From: an uncultured Pseudomonadota bacterium
GTDB taxonomy: Bacteria > Pseudomonadota > Gammaproteobacteria > Burkholderiales > Casimicrobiaceae
Reading direction: 5' to 3'
Length of the DNA stretch: 64,000 nucleotides
Assembly (NCBI GenBank): GCA_963816415.1
Contig: CAWFKR010000014.1
Location: forward strand, 102,996-166,995
Shown here: positions 13,146 to 18,597 of the stretch, in pieces
Numbering within the stretch: position 1 is the first letter of the stretch
Layout: each line of letters opens with the position of its first letter
Notes under the pieces: model-generated
The model's input: the letters and a program-made list of their open reading frames with translations, nothing else
Told to the model about the DNA's origin: nothing
The model's database searches: none
Program-made: the position numbers and the translations under genes

Positions 13146-14909
13146 ATGCGAGCTTCGATCATCCGCAAGACGGCATCCGACCTGCGGGTTGCGCCCAACC
13201 TCGCCGACTACGACGTCGAGCGCGGGCGATTCTCGTGGGCCGCTGCCGCTGCCGAGCTCGGGCTGCGCCCACAGGGCCCGGTCAACATCGGACAGCTCGC
13301 CGTCGATCGACACCTCGGCACGCCCGTTGCCGACCGCACCGCGTTGCGCTTCATCGCCCGCGACGACCGCAGGCGCGACATCAGCTACGCGGAGCTCGCC
13401 GCCCTTTCCAACCGGTTCGCAGCTGCCCTGCGCAGCCTCGGCGTGGGCAAGGGCGAACGCGTGTTCCTGCTCGCCGGACGCATCCCCGAGCTCTACATCG
13501 CGGCGCTGGGCGCTCTCAAGAACGGCAGCGTCGTCTCCCCGCTGTTCTCGGCTTTCGGGCCCGAACCGATCCGGACCCGCCTCGCGCTCGGCGAGGCGCG
13601 GGTCCTGGTCACGACCGAGTCGCTCTACCGGCGCAAGGTCGCAGGCATTGCGAGCGAGCTGCCGCGACTTGCCCACATCCTGCTGGTCGGCGACGATGCC
13701 GCGCCGACCGATGTCCCCGGTACGCACGATCTGGCGACGCTGATGCACGCCGCGGGCGACCGCTTTGCGGTCGAGCAGACGACCGCCGACGACATGGCAC
13801 TGCTGCATTTCACCAGCGGAACGACCGGAACGCCCAAGGGTGCCGTCCACGTGCATGGCGCCGCCGTCGCGCATTACGCGACCGGCCGCTACGCGCTCGA
13901 CCTGCACCCCGACGACGTGTTCTGGTGCACGGCCGACCCTGGCTGGGTCACGGGCACCTCCTACGGCATCGTCGCGCCGTTGCTGCATGGCGTCACCAGC
14001 GTCGTCGACGAGGCGGATTTCGACGCCGAGCGCTGGTACCGGCTGCTCGACGAGCACAGGGTCAGCGTCTGGTACACGGCGCCGACCGCGGTGCGCATGC
14101 TGATGAAAGGCGGTGCCGCGCTGGCGCAGGCGCATCGTCTGCCGGCATTGCGATTCATTGCCAGCGTCGGCGAGCCGCTCAATCCCGAGGCCGTGTGGTG
14201 GGGCGAGGAGGCATTCGGGCTGCCGATCCACGACAACTGGTGGCAGACCGAGACCGGCGGCATCATGATCGCGAACATGGCTGCGATGGACATCAAGCCG
14301 GGATCGATGGGCAAGCCGCTGCCGGGAATCGACGCGCTCGTGGTCGCGCGCCGCGACGACGGGAGCTGCGAGGAGATCACCGCGCCCGGCGTGCAGGGTG
14401 AGCTCGCACTGCGCAGGGGCTGGCCGTCGATGTTCCGCGGCTACCTGAACCAGGACGAGCGCTACCGGAAGTGCTTCTGCGGCGACCTGTACCTGACCGG
14501 GGATCTGGTCACGCGGGATGACGACGGCTACTACTGGTTCGTCGGGCGGGCCGATGACGTGATCAAGTCGGCGGGACACCTGATCGGACCGTTCGAGGTC
14601 GAGAGCGCACTGATCGAGCATCCGGCGGTTGCCGAGGCCGGTGTCATCGGCAAGCCCGATCCGGTCGTCGGCGAGACGGTGAAGGCCTTCGTGTCGCTGA
14701 AGCCCGGCTACGTGGCCAGCGAGGCGCTCCGGATGGAACTGCTGGGCCATGCCCGCAAGCGTCTGGGTGCGGCGGTGGCGCCCAAGGAGATCGCGTTCCT
14801 GCCCACGTTGCCGCGCACGCGCAGCGGCAAGATCATGCGGCGGCTGCTGAAGGCGCGCGAGATGGGCTTGCCCGAGGGCGACACGTCGACGCTCGAGGCG
14901 GATGCATGA
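13146..14909 (+). CDS. acsA: Acetate--CoA ligase-like AMP-forming enzyme
   Basis: [48 protein letters not shown]. Confidence 0.9.
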
Positions 14910-14997
14910 GCGCGAAAGCTGAGCCCAGGGGCGGCCCCGAGGGCGAATGCCGGAGTGCGCGGCACGACGGTGGTCCAATGCACCCGAAGGAGACCCG

Positions 14998-15981
14998 ATG
15001 AGCGCCGGTGCGGTCACGCTGCCGCGCGAGTCGGCGCTCGCGCTGCTCACCGACATGCTGCGCATACGCCGCTTCGAGGAGCGCTGCGCCGATCTCTACG
15101 GGCAGCAGAAGATTCGCGGTTTCCTGCATCTGTACATCGGCGAGGAGGCGGTTGCGGTGGGCGCCGTGCATGCGCTCGCCGCGGACGACGCGATCGTCGC
15201 GACGTATCGCGAGCACGGCCACGCGCTGGTCCGCGGCATCCCGGCGAACGCGATCATGGCCGAGATGTACGGCAAGCGCGAGGGGTGCTGTCGCGGGCGG
15301 GGCGGGTCGATGCACCTGTTCGATGCCGCGACGCGCTTCTATGGCGGCAATGCGATCGTCGGCGGCGGCCTGCCGATCGCCGTCGGTCTCGCACTCGCCG
15401 ACCGGATGCAGGGACGCAAGCGCGTGACGGCGGCATTCTTCGGGGAGGGCGCGATCGCCGAAGGCGCGTTCCACGAATCGATGAATCTCGCCGCGCTGTG
15501 GCAGCTTCCGGTCGCCTTCTTCTGCGAGAACAACCTCTACGCGATGGGAACGGCGCTCGCGCGATCCGAGTCGCAGACGGACCTCTGCGTGAAGGCCGCG
15601 GCCTTCGGCATACCGGCGTCCCTCGTCGACGGCATGGACGTGATCGCGGTGCACGAGGCGGCGCGCGAAGCCGTCGCGCGCGTGCGCGAGGGCGGACCGT
15701 GCTTCGTCGAATTCCAGACCTATCGCTATCGCGCGCATTCGATGTTCGACCCCGACCTCTACCGGGACAAGGCCGAGATCGAGGCGTGGAAGAAGCGCGG
15801 CCCGATCCACAACCTGTCCAATCGACTCAAGGCCCAGGGACTGCTCACCGAGGAGCAATTCCTCGCGCTCGACGCCGGGGCGGCGAGGGAGGTGGAGGAG
15901 GCCGTCGCGTTCGCCGAGGCGGGGAGCCTCGAACCCGTCGAGGACCTGGCCCTCGACCTCGTCGCGGGGCCGGCGCGATGA
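14998..15981 (+). CDS. pdhA: Pyruvate/2-oxoacid dehydrogenase E1 alpha subunit
   Basis: [29 protein letters not shown] motif GEGA...[12 protein letters not shown]. Confidence 0.92.
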
Positions 15982-16955
15982 GGATCAGCTACCGCGAGGC
16001 GATGCGCATGGCGCTGCACGATGCGCTGGCGTCGGACCCGCGCGTGTTCCTGATGGGCGAGGACGTCGGCCGGTACGGCGGCTCCTACGCCGTGTCCAAG
16101 GGGCTCCTCGACGAATTCGGCCCCGAGCGCATCCGCGACGCGCCGCTGTCCGAGCTCGCTTTCGTCGGCGCGGGCATCGGTGCGGCGCTGGGGGGGATGC
16201 GTCCGATCGTCGAGGTGATGACCGTCAACTTCAGCCTGCTGGCGCTCGACCAGATCGTCAATGCGGCAGCGCTCTACCGCCACATGTCGGCGGGGCAGTT
16301 CCACGTGCCGCTGGTGATCCGGATGGCGACCGGAGCGGGGCGGCAGCTCGCGGCGCAGCATTCGCACAGCCTCGAGAACTGGTACGCCCACGTCCCGGGT
16401 CTCACCGTCGTGGCGCCGGCGACGATCGACGATGCGCGCGGCATGCTGGCGCCGGCCATCGCCGATCCGGATCCGGTGATCGTCTTCGAACACGCATTGC
16501 TCTACAACGACGAAGGCGAACTGACCGACGCGTGGCGCAGCCGTGACCTGCGGTCGGCGCAGGTCCTGCGCGAGGGGCGCGACGTCACGCTGATCGCCTG
16601 GGGCGGCTCGGTCGGGAAGGCGCTCGCGGCCGCCGGCGAGCTTGCAGCCGACGGCATTCACGCCGAGGTCGTCGACCTGCGCGTGCTGCGGCCGCTCGAC
16701 GACGCGACGTACATCGGGTCGGTGCGCCGCACACATCGCGCCGTTGTCGTCGACGAGGGCTGGCGCTCGGGCAGCCTCGCGGCCGAGGTGATGGCGCGCA
16801 TCATGGAGCAGGCGCTCTACGACCTCGACGCGCCCGTCGCGCGCGTGTGCAGCGAGGAGGTCCCGATTCCGTATGCGAAGCACCTGGAGGATGCGGCATT
16901 GCCGCAGGCTGCGAAGATCGTTGCCGCGGTGCGGCGGGTGCTGGGCAGGGACTGA
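15978..16955 (+). CDS. pdhB: Pyruvate/2-oxoacid dehydrogenase E1 beta subunit
   Basis: [32 protein letters not shown]; ATGA overlap with pdhA. Confidence 0.92.
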
Positions 16956-16964
16956 GGGGCCGCG

Positions 16965-18287
16965 ATGATCGAGTTCAGGCTGCCCTCGCTCGGCGCTGAA
17001 ATGGATGAAGGCACGCTGCTCGAGTGGAAAGTCAAGACCGGCGACGTCGTGCGCAAGGGGGACGTCGTTGCGGTCGTCGACACCAGCAAGTCGGCGATCG
17101 ACGTCGAGATCTGGAACGAGGGAACGATCTACGAACTCTTGCTCGAGCCACTACGCAAGGTCCCCGTCGGCACACTGATGGCTCGATTGCTCGAGCCCGG
17201 CGAAACCGTCGAGCACGCCGAGGCGGAGAAGCGGCGCCTGCAGGCGGCGGCCGCGGGCAGGGAAACGCCTGCGCCGGTAGCGGCACCCCCGGGCGCGGTG
17301 CCGGTCGGGACGGCCGCAGCGGCTCCCGCCACCCCTGCCACCGCCGCCACCGGCTCGGCGGTGGCGGCTGCCGCGCCTCCGGGCGCCGCGTCACCGGCTG
17401 CAGGGCGGCAGCGAGTATCGCCTGCGGCACGCGTGCGCGCCCAGGCGCTGGGACTCGATCTCGCCGGCGTCACCGGGACCGGGCCCGGCGGGGCGATCAC
17501 GCTCGACGACGTCCAGACGGCGGCTCGCGCCGCGCGACCCGCGGAAGCTGAGCCAGCGGCCGCCGCGACGGCGCCGCGCGAAGCGGCAAGGCCTTCGGCG
17601 GCCGACCGCGCCCTTGCGATGCGAGGCGCGATCGCTGCGGCAATGGCGCGGTCCAAGCGCGACATCCCCCACTACTACCTCGCGGTCGACATTCCGCTGC
17701 TGCGGCTGCAGCAATGGCTGGCCGCGCACAACGCGCCGAGGCCGGTGACCGGCCGCGTGCTGATGGCGGTGCCGCTCCTGAAGGCGGTCGCGCTCGCCCT
17801 TCGCAGGTTTCCCGACCTGAACGGGCACCACGTCGACGGAGCGTTCGTGCCTGCAACCGGCATCCATCCCGGGGTCGCCATCTCGCTTCGACAGGGCGGG
17901 CTCATCGCGCCGGCGATCCACGATGCCGACGCGCTGGGAATCGACGCACTGATGCGCCAGCTCGCCGACCTCGTCGCGCGCGCGCGCGCGCTGACGCTGC
18001 GCAGCTCGGAGATGACCGACGCGACGATCACCGTCACCAACCTCGGCGAGCAGGGCGTCGAGCTCGTGCAGGGAATCATCTACCCGCCGCAGGTTGCGCT
18101 CGTGGGTTTCGGCCGCGTGAGCGATCGCCCGTGGGTCGACGGCGGGCAGGTGATCGTCGCACCGGTCGTCACCGCGAGCCTCGCGGCCGACCATCGGGCG
18201 AGCGACGGTCACCGCGGCGCGCTGTTCCTCAACGAGATCTCCCGGCTGCTGCAGGAGCCCGCACAGCTCGACGGGGTCGCGGGATGA
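16965..18287 (+). CDS. pdhC: Dihydrolipoamide acyltransferase E2
   Basis: Lipoyl domain (DTSKSAID), Ala/Pro linker, E3-binding SPAARVRA...GTGPGGAIT, catalytic DHRASDG. Confidence 0.9.
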
Positions 18288-18339
18288 CGGCCCTCGACCC
18301 GCGCGCCGGGCTGCAGGGGTGCAGCAAGGGGAAGGCACG

Positions 18340-18597
18340 ATGACGTCGCCCGGCGATGCGAGGCTGCGTGCCGCAGTGCTGGAGACGCTGCAGCGCGTGG
18401 CACCCGAGATATCGCGGGACGAACTCGCGCCGGCGCAACCGCTGCGCGACCAGGTCGACCTCGACTCGATGGACTGGCTGAACTTCCTCGTCGGATTGCA
18501 CGAGCGCCTGGGGGTCGAGATTCCCGAGGCGGACTACCGCAAGCTCGTGACCCTCGACGACCTTGTTGCGTATCTCAGGACGAGGATCCCGGCCTGA
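18340..18597 (+). CDS. Acyl carrier protein
   Basis: DLDSMD phosphopantetheine Ser motif, LGVEIPE.D, T..DLV.Y; about 85 aa. Confidence 0.88.
   Translation: MTSPGDARLRAAVLETLQRVAPEISRDELAPAQPLRDQVDLDSMDWLNFLVGLHERLGVEIPEADYRKLVTLDDLVAYLRTRIPA

Follow-up and report, generated by a model that had tools for sequence, protein, structure and literature searches.

A five-gene cassette of acetyl-CoA synthetase, pyruvate dehydrogenase E1 and E2, and a dedicated acyl carrier protein: a possible low-oxygen module for acetyl units

Why would an operon for familiar enzymes of pyruvate and acetate metabolism end in a gene for an acyl carrier protein (ACP) of its own? The question is raised by a stretch of 64,000 nucleotides (nt), here called the window, from an uncultured Pseudomonadota bacterium of the Casimicrobiaceae (GenBank assembly GCA_963816415.1, contig CAWFKR010000014.1, positions 102,996 to 166,995, forward strand). 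Positions 13146-18597 of the window hold five complete open reading frames (ORFs) on the + strand, with a G+C content of 69%, in the order acsA-E1alpha-E1beta-E2-ACP. An initial annotation, made from the sequence alone, had described here an AMP-forming ligase, an E1/E2 set and an ACP, with no E3 (dihydrolipoamide dehydrogenase) and behind an FNR box, and had proposed that ligase and E1/E2 converge on the ACP to generate acyl-ACP under low oxygen. This first observation on the gene set is confirmed: all five genes are present as complete, co-directional ORFs. The tentative answer given below, to which we assign a probability of about 0.4, is that the operon may be a horizontally mobile low-oxygen module for acetyl units, in which the ACP would be acetylated and would link E2, AcsA and control by acetylation.

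The operon and its enzymes

The features of the operon are as follows.

13072-13085: FNR/CRP-family box, TTGACgtgaATCAA, 61-74 nt 5' of the acsA start codon
13146-14909, + strand: acsA, 587 aa; NF003313, PF00501, PF13193
14947-15981, + strand: E1alpha, pyruvate dehydrogenase (PDH)-type, thiamine diphosphate (ThDP)-binding, 344 aa, with an alternative internal ATG at 14998; TIGR03182, PF00676
15978-16955, + strand: E1beta, PDH-type, 325 aa; NF006667, PF02779, PF02780
16965-18287, + strand: E2 dihydrolipoamide acyltransferase, 440 aa; PF00364, PF02817, PF00198
18340-18597, + strand: ACP, 85 aa, with an alternative GTG start at 18319; PF00550

The intergenic gaps along the operon are 37, -4, 9 and 31-52 nt, the negative value being a 4-nt overlap of the E1beta start with the E1alpha stop. 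No promoter-like site was found within the operon, and terminator-like matches there are at chance level (1 found, 1.2 expected from shuffles).

By its sequence, AcsA is an AMP-forming acetyl-CoA synthetase of the short Bacillus/archaeal type. It scores 912.5 bits against NF003313 (acetate-CoA ligase), past the equivalog cut-off of 729, and aligns over its full length to a solved 572-aa acetyl-CoA synthetase (PDB 9g79, E 4e-162). The ANL core motifs are retained, together with the acetate-pocket motif WWQTETG and the PX4GK motif of the catalytic Lys (A10). Retained as well is a basic residue at the CoA-phosphate-binding position of Salmonella Acs, which we take to be R584 and which was assigned by hand from the alignment.

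Homology shows the products of the next three genes to be a pyruvate dehydrogenase of the mitochondrial/alphaproteobacterial type. E1alpha passes the PDH equivalog threshold of TIGR03182 (444 bits, cut-off 394) and carries the ThDP motif GEG-X26-NN at 15442-15534; its nearest solved structure is human PDH E1alpha (E 5e-74), branched-chain 2-oxoacid dehydrogenase (BCKDH) being a far weaker match (E 1e-40). E1beta likewise passes NF006667 (402 bits, cut-off 321). E2 has the domains Biotin_lipoyl (PF00364), E3_binding (PF02817) and 2-oxoacid_dh (PF00198), and its nearest solved structure is the E2 of the human pyruvate dehydrogenase complex (PDC; E 3e-59), while its scores fall under every NCBIfam equivalog cut-off (best TIGR01349, 235 bits vs 445). 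The lipoyl Lys and catalytic His of the initial annotation were located by codon as Lys42 in DTSKS (17088-17090) and His410 in DHRASDG (18192-18194), and its DSMD motif as that of Ser43 in the ACP. Among the E2s of the module family, 62 of 65 retain DHRxxDG, and the lipoyl-Lys motif of the family is DT[S/A/T]K[A/S], with the canonical ETDKA in only one of the 65. An exact look-up of the window E2 returned no match.

The lack of an E3 gene, noted at the outset for the operon, holds for the 64-kb window. None was found among the 35 window ORFs that were selected by G+C content at third codon positions (GC3) and run through Pfam, and no Lpd-type redox-disulfide motif turned up in a six-frame scan of the window and 90 related loci (1.43 Mb in total). 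As a sign of an unusual system, however, this lack carries little weight, because E2 retains its peripheral-subunit-binding domain, and because one housekeeping Lpd is often shared between complexes, with E3 commonly encoded elsewhere. The missing E3 is consequently unremarkable and no sign of odd chemistry; an E1/E2 set without its own E3 must therefore, it seems, borrow the dihydrolipoamide dehydrogenase of the host. By homology, then, the PDH-type E1/E2 and the acetyl-CoA synthetase meet at an acetyl thioester, and all of them look like ordinary CoA-using enzymes of pyruvate and acetate metabolism.

The carrier protein and the conservation of the cassette

The fifth gene encodes a carrier protein of the ordinary kind by profile (35.2 bits against PF00550, gathering score 20.8), with the phosphopantetheine-site Ser43 in DLDSMDW (codon 18466-18468). 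Its start is most likely ATG 18340, giving 85 aa, and not GTG 18319, because a 99%-identical homologue (P0002) starts in this way. None of the 13 NCBIfam models for ACPs reaches its cut-off (best 33.8 bits vs 66); the protein matches no named equivalog (AcpP, AcpM or others) and forms a separate subfamily. The AlphaFold2 (AF2) model has a four-helix fold (pLDDT 84; helices 4-20, 43-57 and 72-82) in which Ser43 is N-terminal in helix II, and a Foldseek comparison gave TM scores of 0.7-0.8 to solved ACPs of the fatty acid synthase (FAS) type. By profile search and by Foldseek, it is similar to FAS-type ACPs, AcpM and mitochondrial ACP. A kinship with peptidyl carrier proteins (PCP) or DltC, and with it an adenylating enzyme as the loader, was considered and dropped, as FAS-type ACPs and AcpM rank first. 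The family comprises 814 clusters (50% identity) at E<=1e-10, and across 37 diverse members 25 of the 85 positions are invariant, Ser43 included.

Rhodococcus sp. DK17 has a homologue that stands alone. It lies on plasmid pDK2 (L086, 8950-9267), flanked by Hsp20 genes on one side and a gene for a DosR-like response regulator on the other, with DosR-like half-palindromes upstream, and a full module is found on the sister plasmid pDK1.

The same five genes, in the same order, were recovered from no fewer than 285 species genomes and from about 35 plasmids, covering Beta-, Gamma- and Alphaproteobacteria, Desulfobulbia and Actinomycetota. The association was examined from both ends. The ACP profile matched 285 species genomes, and among the best 80 loci, which were inspected, AcsA-E1alpha-E1beta-E2 lies directly upstream in nearly every one with enough upstream DNA; the apparent exceptions go back to frameshifts in long-read assemblies, to contig ends or to an insertion. 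Starting from E2, an ORF of the ACP family was found directly downstream in 68 of 70 metagenome loci, one exception being a truncated ACP remnant, and AcsA-E1alpha-E1beta precede in order in 34 of the 35 loci with enough upstream DNA. Of the plasmid records with a module E2, 33 of 34 also have the ACP. The co-occurrence survey that the initial annotation had called for thus finds one conserved unit of five genes, with the ACP close to one-to-one with the operon in both search directions; since the two co-occur both ways, the ACP gene is conserved with the operon. Moreover, in 42 of 83 loci a candidate start codon of the ACP gene shares 4 nt with the E2 stop, and in three others the overlap is 1 nt; by this comparison, the ACP is usually coupled to E2 in translation.

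Annotated plasmids with the cassette come from Burkholderia, Cupriavidus, Paraburkholderia, Ralstonia, Azospirillum, Sinorhizobium, Methylocystis, Roseobacteraceae and Photobacterium, and further from Desulfotalea psychrophila, Rhodococcus, Streptomyces and Embleya; in several modules of Roseobacteraceae, E1alpha and E1beta are fused. The closest homologues of the window module are in metagenome-assembled genomes of Casimicrobiaceae. No sixth conserved gene emerged, the most frequent flanking family being present in at most 12 of 90 loci. Because flanking genes are not conserved beyond close relatives, the cassette itself is the mobile unit. The same count led to the rejection of a fixed downstream consumer of acetyl-ACP, no flanking family being found in more than 12 of the 90 loci.

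On a large conjugative plasmid of the strict anaerobe Desulfotalea psychrophila, a gene for lipoate-protein ligase (L085, 9330-10340) directly follows the module, as if the cassette there brought its own lipoylation. In S. sojae (L093), an orphan E2 of the module type stands without E1, AcsA or ACP, beside an alpha/beta hydrolase gene and one for a universal stress protein (USP).

A second association of the ACP family is with acetyltransferases. In about 30 clusters, a module-family ACP is fused to a C-terminal GNAT domain, giving proteins of about 260-310 aa (loci L034 and L094-L106; proteins P0129, P0185, P0217, P0219 and P0271-P0302). The best curated match of the GNAT is NF058543, the mycobacterial "acetyltransferase Pat" (E about 1e-20 to 1e-23), the score being below the cut-off because only the GNAT domain aligns. 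A Pat-like GNAT also occurs as a separate gene directly after the ACP in two module loci (L017 and L046), is fused to it in a third (L034), and lies no more than 9 kb away in six more. The ACP-GNAT gene of L098 runs over the start of an AcsA gene, whose product is 56% identical to that of the window, with no E1/E2 nearby; that of L101 is oriented divergently to the acsA gene of a full module. In other loci (L097, L103, L105/L106), the ACP-GNAT gene is found in islands that share gene families with the island of the window, with genes for HHH_8 and CapA-like proteins, nitroreductase, class II ribonucleotide reductase (RNR), Hsp20 and USP. A perfect FNR box lies directly 5' of the ACP-GNAT gene in L097 and L105/L106, and 5' of the preceding nitroreductase gene in L103. 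Several of the fusions are on contigs too short for their context to be informative.

The classic substrate of Pat-type enzymes is the catalytic Lys of AMP-forming ligases, and we know of no described Pat-type enzyme with an ACP-GNAT architecture. Since the ACP family is tied to GNAT and AcsA even where E1/E2 are lacking, acetyl chemistry on the ACP stays plausible. These ties, read from gene arrangement, point at least as much to a regulatory role of the ACP as to a pool of acetyl-ACP.

Low-oxygen control and the surrounding island

The FNR box behind which the operon had been placed proves to be one of three perfect matches to TTGAY-N4-RTCAA in the window, where 0.08 would be expected. A perfect FNR-type box likewise lies 5' of acsA, mostly by 50-130 nt, in 26 of 55 closer relatives. 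A scan for DosR boxes in actinobacterial and distant loci gave weak or ambiguous matches that were not clearly enriched. The low-oxygen control that had been suggested is plausible, given the box in closer relatives and the hypoxia or dormancy genes nearby, but hardly extends as a motif to more distant, E2-anchored loci, only 2 of 33 of which have a perfect box. At the level of motifs, low-oxygen control is thus well supported in the lineage of the window; outside it, such control is suggested by gene context.

That context recurs. Genes for Hsp20, USP, nitroreductase, class II RNR, CapA, PpsA, PfkB and pncB are frequent neighbours of the module, as are a DosS/DosR-like pair, Crp/Fnr and pta-ackA, and by these families the flanking genes are usually hypoxia or dormancy genes. 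The window has these island features beside the operon:

18575-19486, - strand: alpha/beta-hydrolase-like gene with VAFAHGSGSSRLSPRN motif, convergent with the ACP gene
23079-24938, - strand: class II RNR, an island gene
25097-25110: FNR-type box, TTGACGTACGTCAA, between the divergent class II RNR and Hsp20 genes
25183-25722, + strand: Hsp20, an island gene

The position of this second box between the RNR and Hsp20 genes suggests that the whole island, 9-28 kb, is co-regulated with the operon. The same layout is seen on a 229-kb metagenomic contig, 99% identical, which is the context of P0002. Here, cytochrome b, short-chain dehydrogenase/reductase (SDR) and CapA-like genes precede the five genes, which are followed by the alpha/beta-hydrolase-like gene and by genes for nitroreductase, DksA/TraR, GshA and an HHH_8 protein, and further on by those for class II RNR, Hsp20, a DAO oxidoreductase and NUDIX. 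Outside the island, the window holds housekeeping genes. All metagenomes found to hold the window sequence are of DNA, and they come from soil, wetland, paddy and freshwater; no RNA runs with it were found.

The alpha/beta-hydrolase-like gene overlaps the 3' end of the ACP gene by 23 nt and had no Pfam match at E<=1e-4. It is conserved beside the module only in close relatives; a similar gene is near the module in Sinorhizobium fredii (L002, 58% identical), and the hydrolase gene beside the orphan E2 of S. sojae is also similar.

Some further observations concern the window and its related islands. The third perfect FNR-type box (52210-52223) lies 64-77 nt 5' of an internal ATG (52146, - strand) in a small ORF of no assigned family (51865-52251, - strand). 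Two small paralogous membrane-protein ORFs (45860-46144 and 52248-52574, both on the - strand) bracket a stretch, 46200-52200, with a lower G+C content of 0.63-0.65 and few convincing ORFs, which adjoins tRNA-Ser(tga) at 52797-52886 and may be an inserted islet. In addition, the related islands of other loci (L093, 8789-11671; L103, 12183-15059; L105, 1-527) repeatedly contain a gene of 925-960 aa that combines PP-binding, AMP-binding and PlsC acyltransferase domains.

Possible roles of the carrier protein and comparison with known systems

In the reading that we tentatively prefer, the phosphopantetheine arm of holo-ACP would be S-acetylated. The donor would be E2, by way of acetyl-dihydrolipoamide or acetyl-CoA, or AcsA, by way of acetyl-AMP, or both, and the ACP-bound acetyl group would couple E2 to AcsA. 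Where a GNAT is fused or adjacent, the ACP would further couple E2 and AcsA to lysine acetylation, of which the catalytic Lys of AcsA-type ligases is the classic target. The reading builds on the enzyme identities, the conserved cassette, the translational coupling of ACP and E2, the ties of the ACP to AcsA and to a Pat-like GNAT, and the FNR motifs with their stress island; QncN/L/M and SclQ1-4, compared below, offer a precedent for an E2-like protein that passes its acyl group to an ACP. Net flux could run either to the supply of acetyl-CoA from pyruvate and acetate or from pyruvate to acetate, with ATP formed by reversal of AcsA.

Several results weigh against this reading. AcsA, E1 and E2 have no sequence sign of having lost CoA and can be explained without an ACP as acceptor. 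Neither the window nor the annotation of the plasmid loci examined showed a gene for a phosphopantetheinyl transferase (PPTase). The link to acetylation control would have to hold although the window lacks a Pat-like GNAT and one is found near the module in only about 10% of loci. Furthermore, the GNAT retains the Q-x-x-G-x-A pyrophosphate motif, as read from the fusion sequences, which suggests that it binds acetyl-CoA itself. The stand-alone ACP homologue on Rhodococcus pDK2 is far from any module, and the scarcity of the FNR-type box in distant loci likewise speaks against the low-oxygen part of the reading.

Could the ACP, then, be an accessory? In this rival, which is possible though on balance rather unlikely, the operon would be an ordinary alternative PDH plus Acs for hypoxia, and the ACP a regulatory or accessory subunit that is not a substrate, such as a partner that stabilizes the core of E2, or a domain by which a Pat-like acetyltransferase docks or senses. 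Parallels would be the ACPs with a structural role in complex I, and AcpM in its complexes with MmpL5 and with EmbA-EmbB. The canonical look of the enzymes agrees with this, as does the finding that the structural matches of the ACP include ACPs bound as non-catalytic subunits; in the fusions, moreover, the ACP takes the place held by regulatory domains in other Pat-type enzymes, the stand-alone ACP adjoins a DosR-like regulator, and the very strong conservation fits a protein with several protein partners. However, an invariant Ser in DSxD, together with a standard ACP fold, speaks for use of the phosphopantetheine arm, and a partner GNAT is not near most modules. At the other extreme stands the strong form of the initial proposal, a CoA-independent generator of acetyl-ACP, in which AcsA would act as an acetyl-ACP synthetase, E2 would transfer acetyl from lipoamide to holo-ACP, and acetyl-ACP would be the main product, serving as a private pool or a shuttle; in a variant, acetyl units would pass from pyruvate through E2 to the ACP, with AcsA reversed to give acetate and ATP. 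Known chemistry lends this some support, as ANL ligases and the citrate-lyase ligase CitC can acylate carrier-protein thiols, and AMP-forming Acs works in the ATP-forming direction in Syntrophus aciditrophicus. So do the strict two-way co-occurrence of ACP and module, the translational coupling of E2 and ACP, and the links of ACP with AcsA outside the module. The precedent cited in the initial annotation, that PDH-like E1/E2 can load a carrier protein, is also sound: transfer from an E2-like protein to an ACP is known from QncN/L/M, as cited in PMC6335953. The acyl-ACP generator as proposed is partly supported. What is not supported is loading of the ACP in place of CoA; AcsA lies above the acetate-CoA ligase cut-off with its CoA-phosphate residue kept, and E1alpha passes the cut-off for PDH. 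In addition, CoA enters E2 cores from inside the hollow core, a route that is awkward for a 9-kDa protein, and no enzyme that uses acetyl-ACP is conserved beside the module. We regard this strong form as unlikely.

Distinctly doubtful, too, is the idea that acetyl-S-ACP is a protein-bound acetyl currency in hypoxia or dormancy, with E2 passing pyruvate-derived acetyl to the ACP and not to CoA. Two fates of the acetyl group are possible under such a scheme. Reversal of AcsA could yield acetate and ATP, making the cassette a CoA-independent module for substrate-level ATP formation, or a Pat-like GNAT could take acetyl from the ACP and switch off AcsA or stress proteins. If the latter is true, the ACP-GNAT proteins would be a new class of lysine acetyltransferase, one that reads a carrier-protein thioester and not acetyl-CoA. 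The substrate might also be something other than pyruvate, for example acetoin, a 2-oxoacid, branched or otherwise, or, as with QncN/L, a ketose, with the ligase activating the matching acid and the ACP carrying the acyl group. The sub-threshold score of E2 (235 bits vs 445), its non-canonical lipoyl motif and the ketose donor of QncN/L/M could be taken this way, but E1alpha passes the PDH cut-off and is nearest to human PDH E1alpha, AcsA keeps WWQTETG, and neither in the window nor in the annotated loci does the module lie within a cluster for nonribosomal peptide synthetase (NRPS) or polyketide synthase (PKS); this makes a different substrate improbable. Least probable by far is a role in which the ACP would be the source of octanoyl or lipoyl groups with which the module E2 is lipoylated, so that a mobile module would be self-sufficient in new hosts. 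Octanoyl-ACP is indeed the natural substrate of LipB, and a lipoate-protein ligase gene follows the module in Desulfotalea psychrophila. But LplA uses free lipoate and not an ACP, no gene for LipB, LipA or fatty acid synthesis travels with the module, the ligase is of the acetate type, and the ACP-GNAT fusions and the ACP-AcsA pairs lacking E2 would be left unexplained.

Whatever the role of the ACP, a textbook PDH and an acetyl-CoA synthetase travel as a fixed cassette with an ACP of their own, through hundreds of species in several phyla and often on plasmids, and the cassette lands in islands that bacteria switch on for anoxic survival. Related islands matter for the persistence of Burkholderia in cystic fibrosis lungs and for mycobacterial dormancy. 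Should the ACP accept or donate acetyl groups, the module would constitute a carrier-protein branch of central acetyl metabolism and, with the ACP-GNAT fusions, a new architecture for the control of protein acetylation. Carriers that can be cultivated include Rhodococcus sp. DK17, Paraburkholderia phymatum, Cupriavidus, Sinorhizobium fredii and Leisingera. Annotation pipelines label the parts of the module generically. No description of an acsA-pdh-ACP module or of ACP-GNAT proteins was found in the full-text literature searched, a limited collection in which absence is not proof; papers on the lxa locus (PMC3721108, which mentions no acsA-pdh-ACP set), OsdR, R. equi and mycobacterial dormancy describe no such module. 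The cassette would thus consist of known kinds of enzyme in a fixed set of five genes, itself undescribed in the literature found, as is the role of its ACP.

The nearest known systems each match a part of it. The module is like the alpha2beta2 PDH of mitochondria, Alphaproteobacteria and Firmicutes in that its E1alpha and E1beta reach PDH thresholds and its E2 has three domains and DHRxxDG. Unlike that complex, the module has no E3 gene, in the window or the 90 loci, and its E2 is below the cut-offs and has the motif DT[S/A/T]K[A/S]; moreover, the E1/E2 genes are preceded by acsA and followed by the ACP gene in a mobile, often plasmid-borne unit found in hypoxia and dormancy islands. With the control of Bacillus subtilis AcsA by the GNAT AcuA, and with that of AMP-forming acetyl-CoA synthetases by Pat/CobB, the module shares an AcsA that matches 9g79 over its full length and has the PX4GK acetylation-site motif, as well as the recurrent tie of a Pat-like GNAT to its ACP family and AcsA. 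In contrast to those systems, its GNAT, in loci that have one, is fused to or follows an ACP and is absent from the window, and the acetylation site of AcsA is a predicted one.

Closest in gene content are QncN/L/M of quinocarcin and SclQ1-4 of scleric acid biosynthesis, for which PMC6335953 gives experimental support that an E1-like and an E2-like protein load a C2 unit onto a dedicated ACP. As described there, an E1-like protein, an E2-like protein with lipoyl and acyltransferase parts, and a small ACP are encoded together, as in the module. However, those genes are in NRPS clusters with a PPTase and convert a ketose phosphate to glycolicacyl-ACP, whereas the module has a PDH-type E1, an added acetate ligase and a stress or hypoxia context. 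No NRPS or PKS genes, PPTase or downstream condensation enzyme flank the module in the window or the annotated loci.

In its surroundings, the module resembles the lxa locus of Burkholderia cenocepacia (PMC3721108), which shares the neighbouring genes for Hsp20, USP, nitroreductase, class II RNR and cytochrome b, along with the CapA-like, PfkB, pncB and pta-ackA families and a motif for an oxygen-responsive regulator. Unlike this locus and the DosR regulon, the window island has no USP among its annotated ORFs. In its content, the mycobacterial DosR regulon also resembles the module islands, and Mycobacterium tuberculosis Rv1734c is presumably a remnant of an E2 C-terminus. Finally, acetyl-S-ACP itself is a product of two known systems, CitC, which forms acetyl-ACP from acetate and ATP, and the GNAT-ACP loading didomain of CurA. 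CitC/CitD differ from the module in being of unrelated protein families with unrelated prosthetic groups, and CurA in its PKS setting; in the module family, the order is instead ACP-GNAT, and the GNAT is Pat-like.

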